Shown here: positions 47,644 to 64,000 of the stretch, one piece after another
How positions within the stretch are numbered: the stretch's first letter is position 1
Layout of the letters: each line of letters begins with the position of its first letter
Source of the DNA: a virus
Length of the DNA stretch: 64,000 nucleotides
IMG/VR virus record: IMGVR_UViG_3300021424_002547
Location: 35,686 to 99,685 of that record
Direction: 5' to 3' (one strand)
Position numbers and translations under genes: made by a program
Notes under the pieces: model-generated
What the model was told of the DNA's origin: nothing
The model's database searches: none
Seen by the model: the letters and a program-made list of their open reading frames with translations, nothing else

Positions 47644-47784
47644 ATAAGGTTAGCCCTCCTTGTTAAGTGCTAGGCACGGACCTTGGACCGTAGTGCCCGT
47701 ACCGAGCACAAAAGTATTTAACAAAGTCTCTGAAAAGTTAACTGTAATGATAAACTATCGTCGATAAATACAAAGGGAGATATT

Positions 47785-48306: not shown

Positions 48307-49024
48307 TGAAGGTCTGAGATCCAGTGATCTCAAAGAGATGGTATATAATACTTTAGAGATCGACACTTATAGATCTAAGATGGGTGAGGATCGAGATGTC
48401 TGCGTTTTAAGTTTTAAAGTCAAAGATCGGGCACCGGCTAAAGATCTAATGGAGTTTATAGAAAAAGGCTACAACTTCGTGTTAGATGCCGATGTCAGTT
48501 CCGGTGAAAACAAAAACGGTGAATATTTCGTTTTCGTAGAATTAGACCGCACAGAAAAACTCGCAGAACAGATACAAGAATTAATGTATGGCATCAAAAG
48601 GCTCACAGAGATAGATTCCTATAAATTTAAGTATCACAAAAACGACAAAGAGCATGAATTAACCACAGAATCGATCAAATCGTTCGTTCCCAATACTCCG
48701 GTAGACTACGAACGTACCATGAATAAATTACAGGTAGAAAATTATAAAAGATTTTTTAATAAGACACTCATGGACGATCTTAGTTTAGAAAAAGATATTA
48801 TTACTTTTTATAAACCTTTTGACAAATCATATAAGTTTAAAATAATCGACGATCAGGATATCACACCTATAGCAGAGGGGGCGATATCATTAGACGAAAA
48901 ATCTGTTGGAGAAACATTTTGGCTTACTAAAATGTTTGGAGATTATAATATCGCTAAAATAGGTGAAAACTTTCTATTCACCAATGGCGATAAATCAATT
49001 TTATTACAAAGGATCGAACTATGA
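48284..49024 (+). CDS. Hypothetical phage protein
   Basis: Likely start MQNNLPLNE; LDADVSSGE. Confidence 0.6.
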   Translation: MQNNLPLNEGLRSSDLKEMVYNTLEIDTYRSKMGEDRDVCVLSFKVKDRAPAKDLMEFIEKGYNFVLDADVSSGENKNGEYFVFVELDRTEKLAEQIQELMYGIKRLTEIDSYKFKYHKNDKEHELTTESIKSFVPNTPVDYERTMNKLQVENYKRFFNKTLMDDLSLEKDIITFYKPFDKSYKFKIIDDQDITPIAEGAISLDEKSVGETFWLTKMFGDYNIAKIGENFLFTNGDKSILLQRIEL

Positions 49025-49650
49025 GTTTTACATTCGAATTTAAAAAAGAGCACCTATCTGAATTAATAGGAAAAAACCCCTATACAGATTATTGGTATAA
49101 CGCGATGTGTGAAATATTACCCGTATATGATATCAACACTCCGGAGCGTGTAGCAGCATGGTTGGCACAGTGCGCACACGAAAGCGGTTATTTCAAATTC
49201 TTAAAAGAGAATTTAAACTACAAAGCAGAAAGTCTGCTGAAAACTTTTCCCAAGTATTTTAAAACACTGGATGAAGCCAAGCAGTACGAAAAACAGCCAG
49301 AGAAGATCGCCAATCGTGTCTATGCCAATCGCATGGGCAACGGTGATGAGGCTTCGGGAGATGGATTCCGTTATCTAGGACGTGGTCTGATACAGTTAAC
49401 CGGCAAGAACAATTACACGTTCTTTGCTGCCAGCATCGATACACCTTTAGAACAGGTTCCTGAATATCTACAGACATTCGAAGGCGCCGTGCAGAGCGCC
49501 TGTTTCTTTTGGGAACAAAATGGGCTGAACAAATTCGCTGATAGCAGAGATATAGTCACTATGAGCAAGCGTATCAATGGTGGTACTATCGGCATGGAAG
49601 ATCGTCTTATGAAATACGAAAAGTGCCTTAAGATGTTTGGAGTAAAATAA
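49021..49650 (+). CDS. GH19 endolysin
   Basis: AQCAHES, ENLNY, YANRMGNG, YLGRGLIQLTGKNNY, RINGG. Confidence 0.92.
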   Translation: MSFTFEFKKEHLSELIGKNPYTDYWYNAMCEILPVYDINTPERVAAWLAQCAHESGYFKFLKENLNYKAESLLKTFPKYFKTLDEAKQYEKQPEKIANRVYANRMGNGDEASGDGFRYLGRGLIQLTGKNNYTFFAASIDTPLEQVPEYLQTFEGAVQSACFFWEQNGLNKFADSRDIVTMSKRINGGTIGMEDRLMKYEKCLKMFGVK

Positions 49651-50150
49651 TGTTTGGGATAGGAGGTGCCATCAAAGCGATAGTAACGCTGATCATAGTG
49701 TTGATAGTGGCTGCAGGTGGTTATTTCCTAATCAATCTCAAAGCCGACCTCGCCATAGCCCAAGAAAATAGTCGTAAACTCGAAGAAGGAGTTCGACTAC
49801 AGAATGAGGCCATGGCACAGATGAAGGCTGATCAGGAAAAAATCAAGGATCTCAATAATGAACTTAATACCACAATTAAGTTACAAAACAAAGATATGGA
49901 GAACCTCAAAGACCGCTTCAGCACCAATGCTGCAGGTGAAAAAAGAGACTTTGGTAAAACCGCCGCTGCTAAACCCGCGAGTTTAGAACGTGCTGTTAAC
50001 AGAGGAACTATTAACGCACTGCGTTGTTTAGAAATCGCTTCAGGAGCGCCTTTGACAGAGGCAGAAAAAAATGCAACCAAACCAAGTGAAATCAATCGTG
50101 AATGCCCCTCGTTGGCTCACCCTAACTACAAGCCTGCTGCTGGTCAGTAG
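49650..50150 (+). CDS. Inner-membrane spanin (Rz-like)
   Basis: N-terminal TM plus long coiled coil, directly after the endolysin. Confidence 0.7.
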   Translation: MFGIGGAIKAIVTLIIVLIVAAGGYFLINLKADLAIAQENSRKLEEGVRLQNEAMAQMKADQEKIKDLNNELNTTIKLQNKDMENLKDRFSTNAAGEKRDFGKTAAAKPASLERAVNRGTINALRCLEIASGAPLTEAEKNATKPSEINRECPSLAHPNYKPAAGQ

Positions 50151-50505
50151 TCTCTCTGGCTGTGCCAGTTTCGACTTCTTAGGCAAGCGTGAGAAGCCTA
50201 TCGAGATCATAACCAAGGCTGCTGACAAGACACCATTAGATATAGCACATCCCGATCCACTGAGACTCAAACCTGTAGAATGGGTAGTGATGACTCCTGC
50301 TAACCAAGAAGAGATATTCAAAAAAATAGAAGAAAAAGGCACAGATCCAGTAGTATTCGGTCTCACACCGGACGGATATCAAGCATTGGCTGTGACTATT
50401 GCTGAACTGCGCAATATGATAAACACACAGCGTAATATCATAATCAAATACAAAGAATACTACGAGCCCAAAAAAGAGCAAGCGAACACAGAAGCAAAGA
50501 AATGA
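50071..50505 (+). CDS. Outer-membrane lipoprotein spanin (Rz1-like); true start may be GTG at 50086
   Basis: Lipobox-like LLLVSSLSGC; overlaps the 3' end of the i-spanin in another frame. Confidence 0.7.
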   Translation: MQPNQVKSIVNAPRWLTLTTSLLLVSSLSGCASFDFLGKREKPIEIITKAADKTPLDIAHPDPLRLKPVEWVVMTPANQEEIFKKIEEKGTDPVVFGLTPDGYQALAVTIAELRNMINTQRNIIIKYKEYYEPKKEQANTEAKK

Positions 50506-50734: not shown

Positions 50735-50965
50735 ATGGGTTGGTTTCGTAGCATATTTACAGACGGCACGGACGACGGAATCAGCAGCAAACGTGTGGTA
50801 ACCATATTGGCATTTATCATGTGTTCGGCAGGATTTATTGGTGATTTATTCTGGGATTTAGATGTTAAGGATGTTATATTTGAATCAATGATGTATATAG
50901 TTGTAGCAGGACTAGGGTTTACAGCATCGGAAAAATTTTCAAAAAATAAGAAGGATGGTGAATAG
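50735..50965 (+). CDS. Two-TM membrane protein, holin candidate
   Basis: SSKRVV before TM1; basic C-terminus; AGGAG RBS. Confidence 0.5.
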   Translation: MGWFRSIFTDGTDDGISSKRVVTILAFIMCSAGFIGDLFWDLDVKDVIFESMMYIVVAGLGFTASEKFSKNKKDGE

Positions 50966-51021
50966 GTTGATTTTTAATGAATTTTTTGTTAAATAAAGTT
51001 GTAGTTTTAATAGGAGCGAGT

Positions 51022-51273
51022 ATGAATTCTGACAAAAGTCTAGCGAGATGGATGATATTACTAATACTTTTGCCTATAGGTCTAGCGGCATTCAGCGGAG
51101 ATCGTTTCCGTTATCCCTGTCAGGATCCTGCCAATTGGGATAAAGCAGAATGCCAAAAACCTAGATGCGAGGTAACAAGGACATGTCCGGAACATATTTT
51201 TAAAGGTGAAGGACCCTCGGGAACATCGGCCCCAGTTAAAACAGCCGTGGTTGGAAAAAAGGAATGTAACTAA
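51022..51273 (+). CDS. Small secreted or membrane Cys-containing protein
   Basis: Hydrophobic N-terminus; RFRYPCQDP..ECQKPRCEVTRTCPE. Confidence 0.6.
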   Translation: MNSDKSLARWMILLILLPIGLAAFSGDRFRYPCQDPANWDKAECQKPRCEVTRTCPEHIFKGEGPSGTSAPVKTAVVGKKECN

Positions 51274-51800
51274 TGGAAAAAATAGATCTTAAAGACGGAA
51301 AAGAAATGTTCATATATACAGAAGAACAGTTAATGGCTCGACTGAAATTTTTTATAGGTATCTGTCTAGCACTAACACTGACGGGTATCGTGTTTGTGGT
51401 GCTTTATTCGCTGATATTTGTTACACAGCCGATGAATGCCATAGCTCCTATAGATCAAAAGTTTTTTGAGCTGATCATACCTATCGCTACATTTTTAACA
51501 GGTACCCTTTCAGGAATCATGCTGGCAGGCAATGACAAGGATGCAAGGATGGAGGCACTGAAGGCTGCCAACAGAGGCGGATCACCTAGCCCTAGTCCTA
51601 GCATACCAACTCCCAGCCTAGGAGGTGGTGGTTTTTCTGCTAACGCCAATATCGGTGGCGCTAATTTTAGTTTTAATAAATCTGCAGCACCGTCCGCAGG
51701 GGCATTTACTCCTGCGGCACCGACTGCATCGTTCGCAGCACCTAAGATGAGCAGCACCGGTAAACCTATGCCTGTCTTAGAAGATGATGAAGAATTATAA
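51273..51800 (+). CDS. Two-TM membrane protein with Pro/Ala-rich tail, holin/antiholin candidate
   Basis: Two TM helices; low-complexity C-terminus. Confidence 0.55.
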   Translation: MEKIDLKDGKEMFIYTEEQLMARLKFFIGICLALTLTGIVFVVLYSLIFVTQPMNAIAPIDQKFFELIIPIATFLTGTLSGIMLAGNDKDARMEALKAANRGGSPSPSPSIPTPSLGGGGFSANANIGGANFSFNKSAAPSAGAFTPAAPTASFAAPKMSSTGKPMPVLEDDEEL

Positions 51801-52115: not shown

Positions 52116-52958
52116 ATGGACTATTACTCTACTTTAGGTGTTAATAGAAACGCCACCCAAGACGAAATTAAAAAAGCGTATCGCAAGATGGCTATGAACC
52201 ATCATCCTGATCGCGGTGGAGATGAGAAAAAATTTAAACAGATTTCGGAAGCCTATGAAATCTTAAGTGATCCTCAAAAAAAACAGATGGTAGACATGGG
52301 TATAGATCCCAAGAGACAACCGCAAGGTAATGGATTCGGACAAAACGGTCCTTTCGAGTTTCATTTCAATGCTAACAATTTTGATGATATATTTGGTGGA
52401 TTCGGATTTGGTGGATTCGGACACAGACATGTTCAAAGAAACAAAACTATCAGCCTCATGGTGGATCTTACATTAGAAGATGTCTTACAAGGTAAAAATC
52501 TAGATGCAGAAATAGCCATACCTGGAGGAAGGAAAAAGATTATTAATATCGTGATACCGTCTGGAATAGAAGAAGGACAACAGATAAGATATCAAGGAAT
52601 GGGAGATAATAGCATTTCTAACATACCTCCCGGAGATTTAATAGTTAATGTTAGAATCATGCCGCACGGAATGTTTCGACGAGAAGGCGATAACCTAATA
52701 CTAGAAAAATTCATCTCAGCATGGGATGCCATGTTAGGAACAAAAATAGATATTTCTACACTAGACAACAAGTCATTAGAAATCGCTGTACCGGCAGGTA
52801 GCCAGCCCGAAACAGTATTAAGTTGCAGAAACGAAGGATTGCCAAATATGCGTAGCAAGTTAAGAGGTAATCTTTTAGTAAAAATAAAAATTAAAATACC
52901 AAAAATTACATCAACTAAACAGAAAGATCTCGTAGAACAATTGAAAAATGGATTATAA
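52116..52958 (+). CDS. dnaJ: Class B J-domain chaperone (DnaJ/CbpA-like)
   Basis: HPD motif, G/F region, C-terminal domains, no Zn finger. Confidence 0.92.
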
Positions 52959-53442
52959 ACTAGGACCGCATCAAAGCCTTCAACAAGTAAGCACTTCTTG
53001 GGATTTTTCTCGAGACGGTGATTCTGAAAAATTAGAATCTGATCTATGTTATTTTATGCAGAAACATATGGGTATAGGTTTAGCCGCTAATCAAATAGGT
53101 ATTGCTAAACAAATTTTTGTAATGGGCAGCGATAATATTCCGGGATTTCCTAAACCCTTCGCAGTTTTCAATCCAAAAATAATCAGCACAGATCAAGAAA
53201 AAGAAATCTTCAAAGAAGGATGTCTGAGTTTCCCTGGACTTTGGTTGAACGTAAAAAGGCCAAAAAAAATAATAGTGGAGTACCAGAACAGTCGAGGAGA
53301 CATCATAGAAGCAGAAATGGACGGATTAATTTCTAGATGCTTTCAGCATGAATTTGATCATCTCAATGGTATATGTTTCGTTGACATCGTTAGTCCCTTG
53401 AAGTTAAAATTAGCAATACAAAAACTAAGGAAACAAAAATAA
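52948..53442 (+). CDS. def: Peptide deformylase
   Basis: [22 protein letters not shown]. Confidence 0.95.
53381..53410 (+). promoter_or_regulatory. sigma70-like promoter upstream of clpA
   Basis: TTGACA-N18-TAAAAT. Confidence 0.45.
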
Positions 53443-55772
53443 TGATAGAGCCCAGCCAGCACCTGCATAATATCTTTAATACCGCCGTTGAAATAGCCAA
53501 GCAGTTAAATCATGAGTACATCACTATAGAACATCTAGTCTATAGCATCATGAGTGATCAAGAATCGTATGACATGATTTCTAACTTTGGGGCCGATGCT
53601 AATTTTATTAAGACCAATCTAGATCATTATCTAAAAAATAACCTCAAAGAAATCATCTCACAATCTCAGGTAAAGAAACCTAAAAAAACCACTAGTGTTG
53701 AACGTGTGTTGAATCGATGTTTTACACAGGTTTTGTTCAGCGGCAGGCAACGCATGGAGATCGCAGACGTTATTATCAGTGTACTGGCTGAAAAAAACAG
53801 TTTTGGTTATTATTTTCTAAACAAAGGCGGTCTGACTAAAGAAAAATTTGTGAAATATTTCCAAGAAAATGTTATCATAGAAGAAGAACAAGAAAGTATT
53901 CCAGCGACCACGAACAATCAGATAGAAAGAATTCTAAATCAATTCTGCACGAACCTAACCTTACAGGCTAAACAACGTAAGATTGATCCGGTGATAGGAC
54001 GAGACGAAGAATTAGAAAAAATCCAACTGATTCTAGCACGTAGAAATAAATGCAATGTGTTAATGGTAGGAGAACCCGGAGTAGGCAAGACTGCGATCGC
54101 AGAGGGGTTGGCTCGAAAGATTTTCGAGGACAAGGTTCCTAAATTTATCAAAGACCATACAGTCTATACTTTAGATATATCAGCATTATTAGCCGGGTCA
54201 AAGTATCGTGGTGACTTTGAAGAACGAATCAAAGCCGTATTCACCGCACTAGAAAAAAAAGGTAAGATCATTTTATTCATCGACGAAGCACACATGATGC
54301 AGGGTGCAGGGGCCGCTAATCAATCAAGCAACGATATGAGCAATATGCTAAAACCCATATTGACCAAAAAGTCTATGAAAATCATAGCGTCCACTACCTG
54401 GGAAGAATATCGAAAGCACTTTGAAAAAGACCGTGCTTTGATGCGTCGTTTCCAGCGTGTGACCATCGATGAACCCAATGAAGAACTAACTATTAAAATC
54501 TTAAAAGGATTGAAAAAGTATTATGAAAAACATCATGAAGTAAAAATTACCGATGCTGCTATAGATCAGGCTGTGAAACTTTCTATGAAATACATGTCAG
54601 ATAAAAAACTGCCAGATAAAGCCATAGATATCTTAGACTGCGCAGCGGCTCGATATAAACTTAAAGATGACGAAAATATGGAAGGTGTAGAACAGATCGT
54701 AGATATAGAACAGGTTACCTACGAACTCAGTAAGATGATCAACATGCCATTAGAGATTGTTGCTCAGAAAGAAAGCAAAAATCTTTCTGATCTAGAAGGA
54801 AATATGAAATCATCAGTTTTGGGTCAAGATGGAGCTATTGATACACTGCTAGATAAAATATTCGTCAGCCAAGCAGGAATGAAATCACCTAACAAACCTG
54901 TTGGAAGTTTTCTATTCCTAGGACCTACTGGCTGTGGAAAAACTGAAACTGCCAAACAATTAGCAGAAAAGATGGGAATGCAATTAGTTCGATTCGACAT
55001 GAGCGAGTACCAAGAAAAACACTCGGTGGCTCGTCTGATCGGTGCTCCACCGGGCTATGTAGGATACGAAGATAATTCCGGTCAACTGATCACTAAATTA
55101 CAAGAATATCCCAATTGTGTGTTGCTGCTAGATGAAATCGAAAAAAGCCATCCTGATGTTTCTAACATCTTGCTGCAGTTTATGGATAACGGTTTCGTCA
55201 CAGGATCGAATGGCAAACAGGCCGATGGTCGCAACTGTATCCTTATCATGACCAGCAACTTAGGTGCCCGGGACAACGAAAACAACACCATCGGGTTCGG
55301 CGAACTTGAGCGCGAAGGAGAAGATGATAAAGCTATTAAAAAGTTTTTTGCTCCGGAATTTCGCAATCGACTAGATGCAGTAGTGAAATTTGGTAGATTA
55401 AACATCGAAACTGTAGAAAAAATCGTACATAAATTTATCAACGATTTAAACTTCCAACTTAGAGACAAGAATATTGAAATAGTAGCAGATGATAATTCTG
55501 TTAAATGGTTGGCAAAAAACGGATATGATCGAAAAATGGGAGCCAGACCGTTAGCCAGATTGATCGATAATAAAATAAAATCACCGTTGAGTAGAAGGGT
55601 TCTGTTTGGCGATCTCGTCGACGGCGGAAATATACACATCCAACTATCTGGAGAAGAAATCACTTTTACCGTCACTGAACGGGCGAAACCGTTAACAAAA
55701 CAACAGAAAAAATTATTAAAGAGAGGATCTCCTTTAGTGATGGAAGAAAAAATCGAAGATGCACAAACATAG
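53442..55772 (+). CDS. clpA: Clp protease ATP-binding subunit
   Basis: Clp N-domain; two AAA+ modules ([16 protein letters not shown]); IGF ClpP-docking loop; no ClpB middle domain. Confidence 0.93.
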
Positions 55773-56430
55773 TATCACTAAAAAGAAGTTCTACGGAAAA
55801 TGGTTGTATAAGGCCGCACTAAAGATTCCCGGTGTGGCTATTCTCCGTGCGAATTCATTAGATGGTGCCATCGAGTTATTGAATAAATGTTTCTCAGATG
55901 ACCATACTAGATATCATTATTATAAAAAAGCCTTTGCTAACAAAGAAGATATGACTAATTTGTGTCAGTATCTCAAATCTTTAAGCGCAAATGATTGGTA
56001 CAAAAGGATCGAAAGAGATAATATAGATCTCTATACGAATGATCCAAAAATTCACAATTATCTTGTTAACAGATTCCGACACATATTGTGTTTGGTCAGC
56101 GAACCAGACATTTCTAGAAAGGATGAATACGAGGATACTCATCACATACTTTGCAAAAAATTACCTCACGATCGTTACAGATATCGCATCTATCTCAAAC
56201 CGCACAATATGCATGGTGATAAATCGGCCAAAAAAAATTATATCGATTGGTTAGAAACTCAAAATAGCGTTCTAATATCTCAAGCGGTCAAAAAATGGTT
56301 CATTGTCACTGATTGGAATTGGGATCCTAGATATATTTTAGTAGAAGATCATAAAACGCTGCTGTTTTTACACATGAGAAATTCAGAAGTTCTAGGAAGG
56401 ATATATGAATATATATTATCCGATAAATAA
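55759..56430 (+). CDS. Hypothetical phage protein
   Basis: Intact ORF overlapping the clpA stop. Confidence 0.6.
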   Translation: MHKHSITKKKFYGKWLYKAALKIPGVAILRANSLDGAIELLNKCFSDDHTRYHYYKKAFANKEDMTNLCQYLKSLSANDWYKRIERDNIDLYTNDPKIHNYLVNRFRHILCLVSEPDISRKDEYEDTHHILCKKLPHDRYRYRIYLKPHNMHGDKSAKKNYIDWLETQNSVLISQAVKKWFIVTDWNWDPRYILVEDHKTLLFLHMRNSEVLGRIYEYILSDK

Positions 56431-56433
56431 GAG

Positions 56434-56802
56434 ATGCCCATCGAAAACACAGTATTATTGTCAAACATAAGCACAGAATCAACTCCCGGAATCTTTTCTT
56501 ATGGAAGCAAAAAAAAGGCCGCTGGTTATCACAAAATCAGTGATGGGCTGCATACAGCGATTTATACCGTGAACAGTTTTTCCGGGACCATAAAAATACA
56601 AGGTACTCTAAATCTGTATCCGGGGGACAGTGATTGGTTTGATATCGATAACACAGAAATAGGTGGAGATAGTTCTGAGATAGGCGGAGCAGATGGATTA
56701 AATTTCACAGTCTCCCGTAATTTTACTGGCAATTTCCTTTGGATCCGTGCAGCATACCACTTAGAGAACGGTATCATAGTAGATCTTAGGTTTAGTTACT
56801 AA
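56434..56802 (+). CDS. Small beta-rich probable virion protein
   Basis: DGLHT, FSGTIKIQGTL, NFTGNFLWIRA; TAAATA-N4-ATG. Confidence 0.55.
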   Translation: MPIENTVLLSNISTESTPGIFSYGSKKKAAGYHKISDGLHTAIYTVNSFSGTIKIQGTLNLYPGDSDWFDIDNTEIGGDSSEIGGADGLNFTVSRNFTGNFLWIRAAYHLENGIIVDLRFSY

Positions 56803-56846
56803 AAAAATATTCACGATAAATATAGTATCACCTCGAGGGAGATACT

Positions 56847-57863
56847 ATGAGAGACCTTTTATCAAAATTAGACGCCATAATCAGCGAAACAGCACTGAAT
56901 CCTAAAGATCCTAAAGCAGACTATGCTGCAAAGAGCAAAGCACTTGACGATCTAGAACGGGATGGACAGACCGATAAAAGTGCCATACAACAGCGAAGAT
57001 TAGATCTAGACAAAGAAGCCAAAACTAAAAACGTCAAAGAAGACACCGTTTTCGAAGTAGGTGACGATTTCGGTATCAGTTTTTCCAAAGATCTCGAAAT
57101 AGCCACAGAAATCGTGGGTTTCGTAGAAGATGGAATCGTTATCGATCTAGATGAACAGGCCCTAGCTGTGTTGGAATCCGAGGGGCTGCTGTTTCTAGAA
57201 GGTGAGTTAGTCAACGAAGAAAAACAAAAAGGTGTTGACGGCAAAGTCTGCTGGAAAGGCTACAAGCGCATGGGCACCAAAATGAAAGGTGGCAAACGTG
57301 TAGACAACTGCGTCAAGGTAGGTGAAGATAATGATGTAGATGAAAGCGGTCTACAATATTACACAGGCAAAAAGAAATACGGCAAAGATGGCATGGCAGC
57401 ATTAGCACAAGCAGGTCGAAAAGGTGCTTCTGAAGAAGAACTAGGGCGCATCAAAGACAAATACAAAAAAGAAGATACAGATATCGAAGAAGCAAAATAT
57501 CCTTTTGCTGGTGCTAAGGTAGGACAAAAAGAAGGTCCTGCAGGACAGTTGAAAGGCAAAGATCCTGCAGGTTATCCTAAAGGAAAACTAGTAGGTGGTG
57601 AAAGTATAGAAGAAGGCATGGACGAAGCCAAATATCAAGGTAGAGAGGTTCCTCTAGGTAAGAAAATGGCCGGTGATGTAAAGAAATCAAAAGTTTATGT
57701 ACGCAAACCAAATGGTAATATTGTCAAGGTAAACTTCGGCGACAAGAAGATGCGCATCAAGAAATCCAACCCCGCTCGTAGGAAATCATTCCGTGCCCGT
57801 CATAACTGTAAAAATCCTGGTCCACGTTGGAAAGCACGTTATTGGTCATGCAGGTCTTGGTAA
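56847..57863 (+). CDS. Modular probable internal head protein ending in a DUF6321-like domain
   Basis: Modules bounded by xxE sites (ISE, VKE, VNEE, VGE, IEEA, MDEA); CWKGY..GTKMKGGKRVDNCV module; KSFRARHNC..ARYWSC C-terminus. Confidence 0.65.
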   Translation: MRDLLSKLDAIISETALNPKDPKADYAAKSKALDDLERDGQTDKSAIQQRRLDLDKEAKTKNVKEDTVFEVGDDFGISFSKDLEIATEIVGFVEDGIVIDLDEQALAVLESEGLLFLEGELVNEEKQKGVDGKVCWKGYKRMGTKMKGGKRVDNCVKVGEDNDVDESGLQYYTGKKKYGKDGMAALAQAGRKGASEEELGRIKDKYKKEDTDIEEAKYPFAGAKVGQKEGPAGQLKGKDPAGYPKGKLVGGESIEEGMDEAKYQGREVPLGKKMAGDVKKSKVYVRKPNGNIVKVNFGDKKMRIKKSNPARRKSFRARHNCKNPGPRWKARYWSCRSW

Positions 57864-57864
57864 T

Positions 57865-58200
57865 ATGAAATTATTAGAAATGTTTAGTCCCATTGGGGCT
57901 CCTAAAGACGATCAACAAGATATTGATTGGTTAGAAGATCTTAAATTTTTTATCGACAATGACGATAAGATGCTCAATCAATTTTTCTTTCCTGCTATAA
58001 AAAAGCACAAGGAGCATCAAGGAAATCCTAATGCATACAAACTGTACATCAGACCGTTGAGTAAATGCAAAGAAGCCTATTGCAAAAAATTTGAAATCGA
58101 GCAACCGGAAGAAAAATTTACAAAAGAAAAGATTATCGAACTAGCCAAATATATCGCTTCAGAACAAGAAAACTTTTTGAAAAAAGGCGATTATAATTAA
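57865..58200 (+). CDS. Hypothetical protein with MKLLEMF N-terminus
   Basis: ATG 1 nt after the previous stop. Confidence 0.6.
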   Translation: MKLLEMFSPIGAPKDDQQDIDWLEDLKFFIDNDDKMLNQFFFPAIKKHKEHQGNPNAYKLYIRPLSKCKEAYCKKFEIEQPEEKFTKEKIIELAKYIASEQENFLKKGDYN

Positions 58201-60656
58201 TGTTATTATCAGAATTATTCGAAGATTCAGTCAAGCATGTTACATTCTGTTTCGGTAGAATGAATCCTCCTACCATAGGTCACAAACAGGTCCTAGATAC
58301 TATGAAATCTCAGGGCGGGGAAATAAAGATATTCGTTAGCCAGAGCCAAGATGCCAAAAAGAATCCTCTAGATTATTCTACCAAGATCAAATTCATCAAG
58401 GCCATGTTTCCAGAATATGCCCAGGATGTGGTAGAAAATTCTAGCCTAAACACCGTGGTCAAGGTGGCCAGTTATCTCTATGATCAGGGATATACTGCTG
58501 CGACATTTGTCGCAGGTAGTGATCGTCTAGACGATATGAAAAAACTACTGGAAGCATATAATGGAGTAGAAGGTAAGAGCCACGGTTATTACAAATTCGA
58601 AGTGCTAGATTTTGCCAGCAGCGGTGAGAGAGAAGACGGTGCTGAAGGTGTTGCAGGTGTTTCAGCTAGTGGTGCCAGAGCGGCGGCAGCTAATGGCGAC
58701 TTGGAATCGTTTAAAGAAGCCACAGGGGCCGGTGAACTAAGCGAAAAGTTATATGCGGCTGTTCGTAAAGGTATGGGCATATCAGAATCATACAAAATCG
58801 CAGAATCCGTTTCTATAGATTCAGCGATAAAGAATATCGTTGCTACAGGTGATAGTGTCGCAAAGACCTATGGCGATCTCAAGACCATGGCGGAGAAGTG
58901 GGTCTATAACAACGGCACGCTCAAAGGATTCCACAGGAATGCCGCAGGTGTAGGTAAACGTTGGTATGACACATTCTTTTGGAACAAGATGGAAAACGAT
59001 CTACGCACACTGCTACAGAAAAATCCCAAGGCCGCAGCGAAGATACAAGACTTTCTCAACATAGAGAAGGACGACAAAGGTCATGTCAGTTTTAACATCA
59101 TCGGACGCAGCCTGCCGAGAATATTAAACGACGTGGGCGAGAAAATGGGCAACGACGATCTCAAGAGATTTGGTGCTAACTGGTTCAAGCGACAGAAAGA
59201 CTACGAAGATTATCTAGGTCGTGTAGAAAAAGAAGTAAACGATGAAGAAGATGATGATGACTTCTCTCCCGCACCTAAACAACCCAAAGACAATGTGGTA
59301 GGCCGTCAGAACGCTGCTGCCGAAGACATAGTAAACCAGATACTCAAGAGTATTGACAAGAAGGCTGCGGGAGAGATACGCAACATCATCGCCAGAGAGC
59401 CTAATAAACTACAGGCCCTGCAGAAAGAGTTAGCGAAACGCAACATCAAGGTAGGCGAATCGATACGCAGGATAAAGGAACAAATCCTCGCCGAACTGCT
59501 CGAACTAACTACAGAATTCGTGAAATTAAATGACGGTAGTTTTGTTCAGATACAATATAGACCGATGTTAAACAGGCAACCTATGCCAGGTTCCGTACAA
59601 ATATCGGTAGCAGATCCAAGAGTCATTCCTAATATCACAACAGTTAGGCCGTTGGCCTCTGCGGGAGCATGGCAGCAGGACGCAATAAACAAAGCAGCAT
59701 CATCTGGACAGTTAAAACAAAAACAATCAGGACAAGGTGTGGCGGAAGGCATCCGTGTGGTAGATCAAGACTACGATCTCGATCAAATCATATTAACTTT
59801 AGATATCGAAGGTCGGAGAGCATCATTTACCTATACTGATTACGATGAGAACTTTGAAAACGCAGAAAGAAAGGATGTGTTTGATCAACTACAGGAAAAA
59901 TCATGGTATAAGGGTTTAGATCATCCTACTAAAATGGAGATCTTAGATGCTGCCTACAAGGCTATAAGAGGTGAAGAACCGAGCGAATACAAACCTACAG
60001 TTGGTGATGAGCCATTAGACATAGACGAAGGTGTCTCGGAAGGCGATTTAGAAGAAGACTGGCGGAAGAAATTGGCCGCTGCGGGCATGGCCGGCATGAT
60101 GGGACTCAGCGGTGCTGCTGGTGCAGCAGATCGTGTACCGGATACTGCCAAAGAACCTATCATAGCTACTGTAGTCATCGACGGTGAAGCGAGGAGATTA
60201 GATCTCACTCCTAAAGGGTTTGACGATGTCAAAGAAGCAGAAAGATTTTTAAAAAAATTCTTGGCGGATCGAGGTATAAAAGATTGGCAGGCCAAGATAG
60301 AACGCAGTAAACCGGGAACAGGCAAGTATGAGAGGTTGACTATCTCAGGCATGGGTGGATTAGAAAGCATACATGAAGCGCCTATAGAGATGGATCCTAG
60401 CGATCCAATGGATCCTATGATCTACGGACACGATCGAGCCAATCCCGGAAAACTGAAATATCGCATGGCAAGAGCGGCCGGACAATTAAAAGATCTATCT
60501 TCGAGAGTAGACGGTGCAAGCGCCAGTGAATGGCAGATGATGGCTCGTCAATTCGAAGAACTGAAGATGAACATGGAACAGATAAGACATGCCTTGGAAG
60601 AACTGGGCAAAGTCAGGAAGAAGGGTGGCATTCGATCGATGGGAATAACAGTATGA
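58200..60656 (+). CDS. HxGH nucleotidyltransferase (cytidyltransferase-like) fused to several C-terminal modules
   Basis: FGRMNPPTIGH, KKNPL, AGSDR, SASGAR; GVAEG and GVSEG junctions. Confidence 0.75.
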   Translation: MLLSELFEDSVKHVTFCFGRMNPPTIGHKQVLDTMKSQGGEIKIFVSQSQDAKKNPLDYSTKIKFIKAMFPEYAQDVVENSSLNTVVKVASYLYDQGYTAATFVAGSDRLDDMKKLLEAYNGVEGKSHGYYKFEVLDFASSGEREDGAEGVAGVSASGARAAAANGDLESFKEATGAGELSEKLYAAVRKGMGISESYKIAESVSIDSAIKNIVATGDSVAKTYGDLKTMAEKWVYNNGTLKGFHRNAAGVGKRWYDTFFWNKMENDLRTLLQKNPKAAAKIQDFLNIEKDDKGHVSFNIIGRSLPRILNDVGEKMGNDDLKRFGANWFKRQKDYEDYLGRVEKEVNDEEDDDDFSPAPKQPKDNVVGRQNAAAEDIVNQILKSIDKKAAGEIRNIIAREPNKLQALQKELAKRNIKVGESIRRIKEQILAELLELTTEFVKLNDGSFVQIQYRPMLNRQPMPGSVQISVADPRVIPNITTVRPLASAGAWQQDAINKAASSGQLKQKQSGQGVAEGIRVVDQDYDLDQIILTLDIEGRRASFTYTDYDENFENAERKDVFDQLQEKSWYKGLDHPTKMEILDAAYKAIRGEEPSEYKPTVGDEPLDIDEGVSEGDLEEDWRKKLAAAGMAGMMGLSGAAGAADRVPDTAKEPIIATVVIDGEARRLDLTPKGFDDVKEAERFLKKFLADRGIKDWQAKIERSKPGTGKYERLTISGMGGLESIHEAPIEMDPSDPMDPMIYGHDRANPGKLKYRMARAAGQLKDLSSRVDGASASEWQMMARQFEELKMNMEQIRHALEELGKVRKKGGIRSMGITV

Positions 60657-61798
60657 AAGCCAAAGATTTTATACCCGCAAGCAAACCTAGAAACTTTGTA
60701 GCCAAGAATCAACAGACCGCAGGCGCTGGTGCACATCGCGACAAGAAGAAAGCGCAGAAACAGGGCTACGAGAAGCACAAAGGCAAAGGTGTCCGGGAAG
60801 GCAGTAAAATCGCTGTAGATCGCAAAACCGGTCGATACTATGATCCAGATAAAGAACTTGACAAACTATTGAACCAACACAAAGCTCAATTTCAAGGTAT
60901 GGCCGCGATTGAAAAAGCACAGAGTTCTGCTAAAAAAGCCAAACCTAAAAAGCCAGATGTCTCAGAAGGCGACGAACCAGATGAGCAGTATCTAGACAAG
61001 GTCATCAGCGATCTATACAAGGATACCTACGGTATGCGTCCAGATCACGAGTTCGGTCGAGAGTGGATGTCAAGCAATTACGAAGAAAAACTTGAGATCT
61101 ATAACAGCATATTAAAAAATCTACACAGTGATATGGATGAAGGTATTGGTGGTACGATCGCCGGTGGCGTGGGTCAGTTCATTGGCAATAAAATCGATCC
61201 TCTACATGGAGAAATCTTAAGAACTCACGGTGAGATGGCTGGTAGAAAAGCAGAATATATTATACGAAAGTATATGCACTTACTACAGAAATCTCTCAAG
61301 AAACAACTAGATTCTGGAGAGAAGGAAGGTGTCCGAGAAGGCAGCGACTGGGGCGAACCTAGAGAGATACTGGAAGATGTTCTACAGACTTTGGAGCGTG
61401 AAGTAGAGTGGCCATTGACCGAGGTAATGGATCCTAGAGAAGTACGCCAACTATTGGCACCTATCATAAAAGCAGTAAATGATAAAATGATGAGTATGAA
61501 AGAAGCACAAGACGACTGGGGCGGTATGAGCCACAGAGAATTCAAGCGTAAAGAATTACAGCATGAACTAGGACATGAAGACGATCCGGACTTTGAACGC
61601 AAGATGCGCCAACAACAGATGGATAAGGATAAAGGCCCGTGGTATATCCGTATCAATGGTAAGATCTACAAGCAGAAGGGCGAAGCCAAAGTGTTCGACT
61701 GGAAAAAAGGTGCTAACAATTATGCCCTAGCCATACTGAAGAACAAGCCGGAGTTGCAAGGTAAAGTCCTGATAACTAAAAATCCCTCGGATCAATGA
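60653..61798 (+). CDS. Modular probable internal head protein
   Basis: Start MKAKDFI (ATGA coupling); GAGAHRDKKK; GVREG x2, DVSEG, MDEG, MKEA junctions. Confidence 0.65.
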   Translation: MKAKDFIPASKPRNFVAKNQQTAGAGAHRDKKKAQKQGYEKHKGKGVREGSKIAVDRKTGRYYDPDKELDKLLNQHKAQFQGMAAIEKAQSSAKKAKPKKPDVSEGDEPDEQYLDKVISDLYKDTYGMRPDHEFGREWMSSNYEEKLEIYNSILKNLHSDMDEGIGGTIAGGVGQFIGNKIDPLHGEILRTHGEMAGRKAEYIIRKYMHLLQKSLKKQLDSGEKEGVREGSDWGEPREILEDVLQTLEREVEWPLTEVMDPREVRQLLAPIIKAVNDKMMSMKEAQDDWGGMSHREFKRKELQHELGHEDDPDFERKMRQQQMDKDKGPWYIRINGKIYKQKGEAKVFDWKKGANNYALAILKNKPELQGKVLITKNPSDQ

Positions 61799-62034
61799 TG
61801 GAAATCGCAGAATTAAAAAGGTTGGCTGGTATCAATGAATTTAAAGGATATGTAAAATACGATCCTGTAAATCCCAACGATGGTAGTAATATCAGCATAA
61901 CTGGTAATGAAAAGGGCGAAATACAGAAAAAAAACAATATAAAACCAGGAACTCCTGAATGGTTCCAACTATGGTTTAGTTTGCCTTACATGACCGGGGA
62001 ACGTCCAGTAGGAGATAAAAAATGGTTGAGATAA
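61795..62034 (+). CDS. Hypothetical protein
   Basis: LKRLAGINE; [13 protein letters not shown]. Confidence 0.6.
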
Positions 62035-62348
62035 CTGAAGCAGCAAAAATAAAGATCATAGATCTGTTGATTGACGAAAACAATCCCAAGTTATTTCTCC
62101 GCACCTTTGTGCAGGGAGGTGGATGTAGCGGTTTCAGTTATGGATTTACTTTTGATGAAGAAGTTAATGAAGATGATTTTGAATTTTCTCTAGATGAAAA
62201 ATATAAGTGTGTTATTGATTCTATGAGTATGCAATACATGACCGGAGCGACAATAGATTATAAAGAAGAACTAATGGGTAGTCAGTTTACCATAAAAAAT
62301 CCAAATGCTGAAACTACCTGCGGATGTGGGAGTAGTTTTTCTATATGA
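62022..62348 (+). CDS. erpA: A-type Fe-S carrier, ErpA-like
   Basis: [26 protein letters not shown]. Confidence 0.88.
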
Positions 62349-62716
62349 GAGCCCGAGAATTCATCAAAGAAGCAAGAAATACACAGGGAGATGTGGCCTC
62401 TGGTTTCGATCCAATCCAGAGCGATCCTCTGACCTTGACCTATGTGTTTCCTACTATGCCTGCGAACAATCCTTACAGGACCTACAGGTTCAGCATGGCC
62501 GTGGCCAATCATGATGCAGAACCTATGGAAAACCCTACCAGCCAGATGGCCATGATGTCGGCCTATACCAAAGAAGAAGATGACATGCTGAAGAAAGCCA
62601 TGAAGAAAACCGGCGATCGTGGACACGTTGTAGGCAACCAAGGCAGTAAAGAACCAAAAGACACCGGTCATCACAGTCCTGTGGCACGGGCCAAACGCAA
62701 TCGCTGGGGAGTGTAA
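62345..62716 (+). CDS. Probable internal head protein
   Basis: [10 protein letters not shown]-terminus. Confidence 0.6.
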
Positions 62717-62719
62717 GCA

Positions 62720-63895
62720 GTGAGAGCCCGAGAATTCGTCATCGAGAAGAAACGCCGCAAGCGTAGACCACGGTGGGCTGCCTATGGTCCAGGACCCTAC
62801 GGCGGTTATGGCTACTACGCAGGTTATAGTGGAGACGGCGGAGGCGGTGATGGCGGAGTAGGTGAAGCCAGCTATCCCGGCAACGTCGGAGCCATGGAGA
62901 TAACTAAATTCTTTAGGATAGCAGGTCCTAAAGAAAAAGATCTGTTGAAAGTGTTGATACAACGCAAAGACTACAGCCGAGCCTGGGCATTGATACAGGG
63001 TATCACGGGTGTAAAACTACAGGGACGAGAATTCCAAACCGACGAAGGATGGCGAGATACACTGGCTGGATTGGCGTTAGGTACCGGTGTAGCCATGGGC
63101 AGCCCTGCTGATGCTAAAACTAATGTAGAACGAGTTGTCGTATCACCGGGACAAACTGTGTATTCTATAGCCAAAGCATTTGATACTACCCCGGAAGTCA
63201 TTCAAAAATTAAACAAATTAGATAAAGATTTTACTATCAAACCCGATCAGGTTATAAAAGTTCCTAAGATAGATACAGTTGAAATTCCTTCTAAAGAAAA
63301 AAAATCTATTGATAGTAAAAAATCTGTAGAAAAGAAAGATGAAAAGAAATCCGAAAAGAAAATAGACACCAACAAAACTCTAACCGGAAAACCTTTTGAA
63401 GCATTGCTAACTCGAACCGCTCGGTCGTCCGGAATCACAGATCCTATCGAACTGGCGGCTTTCCTAGCCCAGACTTCTGTAGAGACTGGAAGATTCAAAC
63501 ACATGAGAGAAGTCGGCAACAAAGAAAGGATCGAAAGGATGTACGATCTAAAATTCAACCGACAAGGTGCTAAGATACTAGGCAATACCAAACCCGGAGA
63601 CGGCTGGAGATATCGAGGTAGAGGATTTATACAATTGACTGGCAGAGACAATTATACCAGAGCCGGCAGAGATCTCGGCCTCGATCTAGCCAAAGATCCC
63701 GATCTAGTGGCCAGAGAGCCTGAAGTCGCGGCCAGAGCCAGCGTATGGTATTGGAAAACCCACGTTAGACCACAGGTAAACGATTTTAGAGATACTGCTG
63801 CAGTTACCAAAGCGGTTCAAGGGGGGTCGTCTGCGCTGGATCGTAGAGAACGCGAATTCCAAAATTTTAAACAATTACAATTGGCTAAAATATGA
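62720..63895 (+). CDS. Polyprotein ending in a LysM plus GH19 peptidoglycan hydrolase
   Basis: LysM VSPGQTVYSIAKAFDTTPEVIQKLN; GH19 AQTSVET, YRGRGFIQLTGRDNY; MRAREFVIE N-terminus (GTG start). Confidence 0.85.
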   Translation: MRAREFVIEKKRRKRRPRWAAYGPGPYGGYGYYAGYSGDGGGGDGGVGEASYPGNVGAMEITKFFRIAGPKEKDLLKVLIQRKDYSRAWALIQGITGVKLQGREFQTDEGWRDTLAGLALGTGVAMGSPADAKTNVERVVVSPGQTVYSIAKAFDTTPEVIQKLNKLDKDFTIKPDQVIKVPKIDTVEIPSKEKKSIDSKKSVEKKDEKKSEKKIDTNKTLTGKPFEALLTRTARSSGITDPIELAAFLAQTSVETGRFKHMREVGNKERIERMYDLKFNRQGAKILGNTKPGDGWRYRGRGFIQLTGRDNYTRAGRDLGLDLAKDPDLVAREPEVAARASVWYWKTHVRPQVNDFRDTAAVTKAVQGGSSALDRREREFQNFKQLQLAKI

Positions 63896-64000
63896 AAGCT
63901 CACGAATTCATAACTGAAAATTTTGCAGACGGTAAACGCAAAGGCAAGAGCCGTCCAGGGCGTGTAAAACGTTCAGGAGCCAGTTGTAATGGTAGCGGGG
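63892..64000 (+). CDS. Probable internal head protein (3' truncated by window edge)
   Basis: MKAHEFITENFADGKRKGKSRPGRVKRSGASC... Confidence 0.6.
   Translation, partial: MKAHEFITENFADGKRKGKSRPGRVKRSGASCNGSG

Follow-up and report, generated by a model that had tools for sequence, protein, structure and literature searches.

An internal export-signal-like module before a LysM-GH19 wall hydrolase in a tagged, modular protein of an uncultured T4-like phage

We analyzed a stretch of 64,000 nucleotides of viral DNA (hereafter the window; positions 35,686 to 99,685 of the IMG/VR record IMGVR_UViG_3300021424_002547, that is, the final 64 kb of a viral contig of 99,685 bp), in which an open reading frame at 62720-63895 on the plus strand, with a GTG start, encodes a protein of 391 residues ending in a LysM and a GH19 domain. 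As judged from its sequence, this protein is a string of modules. An N-terminal tag is followed by a basic, Gly/Tyr-rich stretch, a module of three helices and an export-signal-like segment, with LysM and GH19 at the end, and the joints fall at the conserved glutamates E9, E49 and E109. The segment before LysM behaves as a real export signal, even though it starts 109 residues inside the chain. We tentatively propose that the protein is a late, capsid-targeted precursor that would be trimmed in the phage head, ejected, and exported to the wall by the general secretory (Sec) system of the next host.

The contig, for which CheckV gives a completeness of 28%, probably derives from an uncultured T4-like jumbo phage. 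Its baseplate and other proteins show ~40% identity to those of T4-like cyanophages (Kyanoviridae), and the closest cultured relatives of a neighboring gene are found in Phage C48C1 and Methylophilales phage Melnitz. Relatives of the 391-residue protein were collected in two ways: a search with residues 1-140 retrieved 551 metagenomic proteins, and the module counts given below come from 120 listed among these; a second, whole-library search was made with residues 106-391. The related contigs (L-numbered loci, G001 and G004) are IMG/VR contigs. Hydrophobicity is given as simple Kyte-Doolittle means, namely the best mean over 15 residues.

Modular architecture of the 391-residue protein

A Shine-Dalgarno-like GGGGAG, read from the sequence, lies at 62706..62711, 8 nt upstream of the GTG start (all features described here and below are on the plus strand). 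Residues 1-9 (MRAREFVIE; 62720..62746) form the capsid-targeting-sequence-like tag, which ends in V-I-E and in which F6 and E9 are conserved across the family. In residues 10-49 (62747..62866), the polybasic KKRRKRRPRW is followed by a Gly/Tyr-rich part ending in G-V-G-E49; E49 is invariant, AlphaFold2 predicts the module to be disordered (predicted local distance difference test score, pLDDT, about 30-40), and in two relatives (P0087 and P0105) a different module, an HD domain, begins directly after VGE. Residues 50-109 (62867..63046) are predicted to form three helices (58-67, 70-81 and 85-96; pLDDT about 80-85). This module ends in QGREFQTDE, of which R-E-F-Q-T-D-E109 is an internal copy of the tag motif REF..E, and both E104 and E109 are invariant in the family alignment.

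The signal-peptide-like module, GWRDTLAGLALGTGVAMGSPADA, occupies residues 110-132 (63047..63115) and precedes K133-T. It consists of a short Arg-bearing n-region, a 14-residue h-region of Gly, Ala and Leu (T114-G127), and A130-D131-A132. The remainder of the chain comprises LysM at residues 140-182 (63137..63265; PF01476, E 3.5e-11, 43.3 bits against a cut-off of 20.9; pLDDT 82-85), a Lys/Glu/Ser-rich linker at residues 183-221 (63266..63382), which is predicted to be disordered and is variable in length in the alignment, and a GH19 muramidase domain at residues 222-391 (63383..63895 with the stop codon; pLDDT 90-96). Pfam Glyco_hydro_19 (PF00182) matches residues 242-351 (E 1.1e-14, 55.3 bits against a cut-off of 25.5), and the GH19 part also matches the endolysins of PHROG 181 (E 4.7e-42). 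Its closest solved structures are the phage GH19 endolysins 4ok7 and 7r6s (E about 1e-21), and the catalytic pair E255/E264, in the arrangement E-x8-E, is invariant in 39 relatives. These results bear out an earlier prediction for this DNA (the original prediction), which had described a capsid-targeting-like tag, a TDE-segment-KT arrangement at about residue 110 (we found T107-D108-E109, then GWRDTLAGLALGTGVAMGSPADA, then KT), and a LysM, a Lys-rich linker and a GH19 domain with its catalytic Glu; the start coordinate given there, 63041, falls on the codon for D108.

In the AlphaFold2 model, LysM, GH19 and the three-helix module (58-96) are confident, and residues 1-55, 100-134 and 185-213 have low confidence; the proposed cut sites would therefore lie in exposed stretches. 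The GWRDTLAGLALGTGVAMGSPADA segment (pLDDT <50) is not packed against any domain, and nothing in the model suggests that it is covered by the three-helix module. Therefore, any masking of the segment would act through position and charge and not through folding.

Export-signal character of the internal segment

Among the 120 listed relatives, the segment is found directly before LysM/GH19 in all 116 that bear GH19, and it always starts with [GD]-[WIL]-[RK] right after a Glu. Because of this conservation and this constant placement, we regard the segment as more than a chance feature. Its position in the listed relatives ranges from 110 to 383 and is set by which modules precede it. In the set found with residues 106-391, the segment and its cargo occur in chains of 263-1479 residues, with the segment starting anywhere from residue 2 to 1202, and the shortest forms consist of tag, segment and cargo, as in MRAREFDQELDE/GWRDT (a slash marks the junction after Glu). 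The segment is absent from four of the 120 listed relatives, whose cargo is a ParB N-terminal domain (P0114), a helical domain of unknown kind (P0115 and P0118), or a part without a GH19 match (P0119).

In about 80 of the 116, an A-x-A motif (ADA, AEA, ASA, AAA or AQA) closes the segment before the polar cargo. These forms mostly bear LysM (67 of 80), and anchor-like forms, which read ...GM..KQALTSP or ...AAYDAYK, are mostly without it (27 of 32). A wall hydrolase is usually held at the wall either by a binding domain or by a membrane anchor. Sec signals are located at the N-terminus, and the segment starts at residue 110; its n-region is net positive only if the chain begins at G110. The twin-arginine (Tat) motif S/T-R-R-x-F-L-K is likewise not found in the 391-residue protein, which has a single Arg at this place (GWRD), and Tat motifs are confined to the relatives L010, L024, L034, L035, L040 and L041.

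In these relatives, a Tat-like leader takes the place of the segment or, in L010, of a similar module. The order of tag, twin-arginine signal (RRGFLG...AQA) and GH19 is found in L024, L034, L035 and L041, with MRAKEFVSE/DMSRRGFLGALG...AQA in L024 as an example, and L040 has an internal Tat-like junction, ...DVEE/DISRRGFLG, before GH19. The genes lie at L024:9860-10519, L034:7541-8167, L041:9851-10468 and L040:169-1341, and in L035. The Pfam TAT_signal matches in the relatives reach 16-20 bits, below the cut-off of 22.7, so that we base the Tat reading on the RRxFL motif seen in these sequences. A similar exchange is found before a second, unrelated cargo. The 818-residue protein encoded nearby (58200-60656) has a second signal-like module, DWRKKLAAAGMAGMMGLSGAAGAA (60057..60128), after D-L-E-E619; this Sec-like module reads DLEE/DWRKKLAAAGMAG... 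and is followed by a small domain, and the homologue of that domain in L010 (BLASTP E 2e-4) follows a Tat-like VDE/VDRRGFLKGLGAAALAG (TAT_signal 20.4 bits).

LysM and GH19 act only outside the cytoplasmic membrane, and a Tat signal makes sense only for a protein that starts in the cytoplasm. Because a swap of Sec-like and Tat-like leaders before the same cargo is otherwise hard to explain, we read both leaders as export signals used from the cytoplasm. Given that Tat signals replace the segment before GH19 and also before the second cargo, the segment, by this pattern of replacement, behaves as a real export signal. To our knowledge, no Tat-routed phage muramidase has been described, and literature searches, which did not cover most subscription journals, turned up no account of phage proteins that are packaged in the head and bear a Sec or Tat signal.

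The same replacement bears on two other explanations of the segment. According to the first, it is a flexible Gly/Ala-rich linker or a glycine-zipper oligomerization stretch in a cytoplasmic or capsid-internal protein, as its GxxxGxGxxxG pattern, the low hydrophobicity of this copy and the low model confidence might suggest. However, the segment is strictly tied to wall-acting cargo that has no function in the cytoplasm, it ends in A-x-A, and it is interchangeable with Tat signals, so that we consider a linker very unlikely. According to the second, the protein is packaged and processed, and its newly exposed hydrophobic N-terminus inserts directly into the inner membrane at ejection, without Sec or signal peptidase, and the enzyme acts at the site of entry, like T7 gp16 or T5 Pb2. 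Ejection proteins of podoviruses have membrane segments together with wall hydrolases, and anchor-like variants without A-x-A do exist; the head protein gp47 of phage SPN3US has been read in this way by its authors (PMC5694885). However, Tat, whose signals stand before both kinds of cargo, has no role in insertion from outside; signal peptidase I is suggested by the A-x-A that most forms with LysM conserve; and T4-type tails have their own wall hydrolase, a GH19 hit being present in G004 in an 895-residue frame near the prohead protease gene. Direct insertion therefore seems improbable to us. Because Tat signals substitute for the segment, it was ranked lower, and so was a signal-arrest-release (SAR) endolysin, the composition of which fits, although the segment lies inside the chain and the phage has a separate cassette of endolysin and spanins.

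The tag, the Glu junctions and the prohead protease

The tag resembles the leaders of proteins packaged in the T4 head, in agreement with the capsid-targeting role that the original prediction had suggested for it. In T4, the prohead protease gp21 removes the capsid-targeting sequence of IPI, IPII, IPIII and Alt. The tag and the T4 leader, of 9-10 residues, share the pattern M-[KR]-x-x-(x)-E-F-[IV]-x-E, and both IPII and IPIII begin MKTYQEFIAE (read from the T4 record). The match to the tag is one of pattern only, over ~10 residues ending in [LIV]-x-Glu. In IPIII, the first 10 residues are enough for packaging and are removed by gp21 (PMC9026906). The last three genes of the window start with MRAREFIKE (62345), MRAREFVIE (62720) and MKAHEFITE (63892), and tag-like starts in the 99.7-kb contig are restricted to this cluster, where each coincides with the start of a gene. 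Some small basic proteins and enzymes that have no export signal bear the tag as well. In addition, the 818-residue enzyme starts with MLLSELFED and T4 Alt with MELITELFDED, and neighboring genes of Melnitz and C48C1 show a fuller T4 pattern, such as MQGFKTFLSE and MKNFKNHIAE.

The tags are also alike at the DNA level. The coding starts at 62345-62365 and 62720-62740 are identical over the first 18 bases except for the first base (17 of 18; ATG/GTG AGA GCC CGA GAA TTC), and CGAGAATTC of the tag coding sequence recurs at the internal REF motif (63026-63034). Gene conversion at the tags, or shuffling of cassettes there, is suggested by this identity.

The same module starts are found after the tag and inside chains: FIIE/LKITD (L008) and GVTE/LKITD (P0115), ELDE/GWKEKLAAAG (a 212-residue protein of L005) and SIDE/GWKEKLAALG (P0020), and FITE/NFADGK (a separate gene) and IEHE/NFADGK (inside L015). 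Therefore, internal junctions and tag ends are the same kind of site, and the Glu before the hydrophobic segment is, by this comparison, a universal module boundary equivalent to the terminal Glu of the tag. At 28 of the 45 distinct junctions before the segment, the residue at P3 is Val, Ile or Leu, against a background of 17%. The 391-residue protein has [VIL]-x-E at E9 and E49 alone, and its cargo has none where 3.2 would be expected (p about 0.02). Over the family, the motif falls short of expectation in the cargo (observed/expected 0.67) and exceeds it in the N-terminal parts, where junctions abound (2.42), compared with 1.16 in 20 control proteins. In some relatives, the signal is preceded within the chain by HAD and HD enzymes, which are of cytoplasmic type, and this arrangement fits a chain that is cut.

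A T4-type (gp21-type) prohead protease of the Peptidase_S77 family is encoded by two of the four related large contigs with homologues of the gene (G001 and G004). The capsid protein of G001 has the sequence KYLSE/SATAG, which aligns with the maturation site of T4 gp23, FLTE65/AEIGG, and in T4 gp23 a propeptide of 65 residues is removed (PMC9958956). A small basic protein encoded ~0.5 kb past the end of the window (L009:402-590; orthologues at L007:11416-11601 and L010:11462-11719) starts with MMKIREIFE/TATAGSTSAGNV, and what follows its tag repeats the N-terminus that the G001 capsid protein is predicted to have once mature (KYLSE/SATAGATSAGNV). It looks as if this protein has borrowed the cleavage site of the capsid protein.

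Expression and internal starts

The T4-late-promoter-like motif GATAAATA is located at 56815..56822, ~25 nt upstream of the first gene of a gap-free cluster of genes (56847-64000). L006, L007 and L010 have the motif in the same context before their orthologues of this gene, and in the window it is also present at 47763, upstream of the lysis cassette. The form [GA]ATAAATA precedes head and virion genes of the related contig G001 as well. It occurs at 47763, 56422 and 56815 of the window and at L096:349, 4800 and 12707, and the lysis unit, the tagged cluster, and the head and tail genes of a relative begin 10-50 nt after it. In this clade, [GA]ATAAATA probably takes the place of the T4 late promoter; the exact T4 sequence, TATAAATA, was found once in the window, which is below chance, and only the looser form stands in front of genes. 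Scans of 56000-64000 for sigma-70 promoters and terminators gave no more matches than chance.

An internal translation start, which the original prediction had already raised, would place the segment at the N-terminus, as in an ordinary signal peptide. Some distant relatives do retain a Met immediately ahead of the signal, as in DMSRRGFLG (L024) and AMPSWMKK (L027). However, of the in-frame ATG, GTG and TTG codons from M59 to residue 132 (M59, L76, V78, L79, L91, L118 and M126), M59 lies ~50 codons before the segment and L118 inside its h-region, and none of the seven has a Shine-Dalgarno-like motif upstream. Nor is the Met at the junction conserved among the relatives, being Leu in L034 and Ile in L041 and L040, and the scans revealed no promoter or terminator signal above chance. 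With no in-frame start having a ribosome-binding site, we give this explanation next to no credence.

The cell in which export would occur

Starting from the modular grammar, the identity of the export signal and the T4-type context found above, we infer the packaging, the cleavage and the cell of export as follows. The tag, like a T4 capsid-targeting sequence, would bring the precursor into the prohead core, where a T4-type prohead protease would cut after the junction residues E9, E49 and E109. The resulting LysM-GH19 product of 282 residues would start with G-W-R-D, so that the signal would now be N-terminal and the preceding acidic stretch gone. The trimmed product would then be expelled alongside the DNA into the next host, whose Sec system would export it, signal peptidase I would cut after A-D-A132, LysM would bind the wall and GH19 would cut it. 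In the producing cell, an internal, weakly hydrophobic and acid-flanked signal would keep the enzyme from the wall, and lysis would be left to the separate endolysin and spanins. The original prediction had proposed a similar course, and our comparisons support it in part, namely for the tag, the Glu boundary, the export signal and the lack of a usable internal start. Cutting of the wall in the new host may help entry, remodel the wall, or act against competing phages.

The main alternative to this scheme is that the producing cell itself exports the enzyme. The segment would then be an internal signal or signal-anchor, or would be freed by some cytoplasmic protease, and the protein would assist in lysis as an enzyme that is secreted or tethered to the membrane, comparable to Sec-exported or SAR endolysins, with the tag as a recombination scar. 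The cluster has a late-type promoter, as does the lysis cassette, and the segment has a Gly/Ala/Thr-rich, SAR-like composition; its ...GM..KQALTSP variants, with means of up to 2.07, are hydrophobic enough for a stable anchor. The 17 of 18 bases shared by the tags of adjacent genes are also what recombination would give. However, a complete endolysin-spanin cassette is already present, and the signal is weakly hydrophobic and lies 109 residues inside the chain (up to about 1200 in relatives). It is always preceded by 2-4 acidic residues, which are unfavorable for Sec targeting, and some relatives have the cytoplasmic-type HAD and HD enzymes fused upstream. Among the GH19 relatives found with residues 106-391, none has a plain start of Met-Lys-Lys or other basic residues followed by a hydrophobic stretch, and the tag is also present on small basic proteins and on enzymes without an export signal. 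We consider export in the producing cell less likely than export in the next host, while noting that the short tag-Tat-GH19 forms (206-220 residues), in which the n-region is net positive even with the tag, could probably be exported there with the tag on.

Those short forms weigh against export in the next host, and so do several other observations. We know of no reason why a phage would want its host's wall hydrolyzed from within early in infection. With a Kyte-Doolittle mean of 1.27 (up to 2.07 in relatives), the h-region of the 391-residue protein is weak for a Sec signal, and about a third of the relatives are without A-x-A and resemble membrane anchors. The junction before the segment is T-D-E, with Thr at P3, unlike the Leu, Ile or Val of T4 sites. 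The window's own contig, 28% complete, has no Peptidase_S77 and no head genes, and the prohead protease is seen only in related contigs. The placement of the late-promoter-like motif fits late expression and would fit a lysis role equally, so that it does not separate lysis from a role in the virion. Finally, the family sequences are akin, which means that the counts are not independent events, and a tblastn search with the N-terminal 141 residues gave no match in 50,697 cultured-phage records.

Lysis cassette and neighboring genes

The separate GH19 endolysin that the original prediction had placed in the lysis cassette is present, together with spanin-like genes, at 49021-50505. The cassette consists of a signal-less GH19 endolysin with the same E-x8-E pattern (49021-49650), an i-spanin-like gene with an N-terminal transmembrane segment (49650-50150), and, overlapping the latter, an o-spanin-like lipoprotein gene with the lipobox LSGC (50071-50505). 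Small membrane proteins are encoded downstream of the spanins (50735-50965 and 50977-51800), and one of them, 76 residues long and with two hydrophobic stretches, may be the holin. In G004, the GH19 hit mentioned above (G004:C1:108912-109094; 28 bits) lies in the 895-residue open frame ~4 kb upstream of the prohead protease gene. These phages may thus have three enzymes of the GH19 family, one acting as endolysin, one within a large protein of virion type, and one borne as tagged cargo.

Just upstream of the tagged cluster lies a protein-handling block (52116-55772), which encodes a DnaJ-like protein (52116-52958), a peptide-deformylase-like protein (52948-53442) and a ClpA/ClpB-like ATPase of 776 residues (PHROG 4871, E 1e-248); its gene order is conserved in L006, L007 and L010. 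Within the cluster, the 818-residue chain has a T4 Alt-like N-terminus, a cytidylyltransferase-like domain (residues 17-120) and many junctions of the form V-x-E/G. The ATG of the next gene (60653-61798) overlaps the stop codon of this chain. It encodes a tagged protein of 381 residues (MKAKDFIP...), which contains the junctions GVRE/G (twice) and DVSE/G (once) and a short basic module, PRNFVAKNQQTAGAGAHRDKKK..., with a Pfam DUF7230 match of 25.8 bits, just below the cut-off. This module is reminiscent of the ribosome-rescue factor ArfA. A blastn search with the whole tagged cluster gave no match.

Comparison with known systems

The nearest described system is the capsid-targeted cargo of T4, namely the internal proteins and Alt, and the nearest single case is gp47 of SPN3US. 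The window phage shares with T4 a T4-like lineage, with Peptidase_S77 in its relatives, and a diverse, fast-changing cargo behind a common leader, which includes enzymes (Alt). However, the chain in the window has several modules at further Glu sites, whereas T4 has one leader and one cargo, and T4 cargo acts in the cytoplasm, whereas the last module of the window protein would carry an export signal and a wall hydrolase. In the Salmonella giant phage SPN3US, the head ejection protein gp47 loses a propeptide of 111 residues when the prohead protease cuts at ALE-111, which leaves a predicted transmembrane helix at the N-terminus that, in the view of the authors, meets the host membrane (PMC5694885). 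This propeptide of ~110 residues ending in Glu is like the 109 residues of the window protein; phiKZ gp86 and 201phi2-1 gp148 are likewise head ejection proteins with long propeptides. SPN3US belongs to another phage family (phiKZ-like, with an A-x-E cutting rule), and gp47 has no described LysM/GH19, signal-peptidase site or Tat variant. The original prediction that no described system follows this logic was nevertheless too strong, given the protease-exposed N-terminal helix of gp47 (PMC5694885).

What appears to be new is a Sec-type signal (Tat-type in relatives) with a signal-peptidase motif before a wall hydrolase in a multi-module chain of a T4-like phage. Literature searches, made mostly without subscription journals, found no paper describing a Sec- or Tat-signalled wall hydrolase in such a chain. 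Virion-carried wall hydrolases for entry, sometimes with membrane-active segments, are represented by ejection or tape-measure proteins of podoviruses and siphoviruses, such as the T7 gp16 transglycosylase, T5 Pb2 and the tape measure protein of mycobacteriophage TM4. They act at the entry channel without export by the host, whereas the Sec-like and Tat-like signals of the window family would imply a route through the cytoplasm. The Sec-signal endolysin Lys44 of the Oenococcus phage fOg44 and the SAR endolysins P1 Lyz and R21 of phage 21 have a weakly hydrophobic, Gly/Ala-rich export or anchor segment. In these exported endolysins the signal is N-terminal and the protein is the phage's lysis enzyme, whereas in the window protein the signal is internal, after a tag and modules, and the phage has a separate endolysin cassette.

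Implications

On a broader and still more tentative level, we suggest that T4-like jumbo phages may pack pre-secretory proteins, that their prohead protease may make buried Sec or Tat signals N-terminal, and that the translocases of the next host may then put enzymes, in the present case a LysM-GH19 muramidase, in the periplasm before any phage gene expression. A signal made in one cell would in this way serve in the following one. The sequence rules described here yield exact predictions for mass spectrometry and export assays. If this suggestion is true, then the head-packaged cargo of phages would not be confined to the cytoplasm of the infected cell, and ready-made enzymes would be placed in the periplasm within moments of injection by way of the host Sec and Tat systems. 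The head protease would serve as a safety catch that keeps these enzymes harmless in the producing cell. Host manipulation would thereby gain another route, and signal peptides a new role. The fusion of cytoplasmic-type enzymes and wall hydrolases in one frame, which many uncultured T4-like phages encode, would be explained as well.

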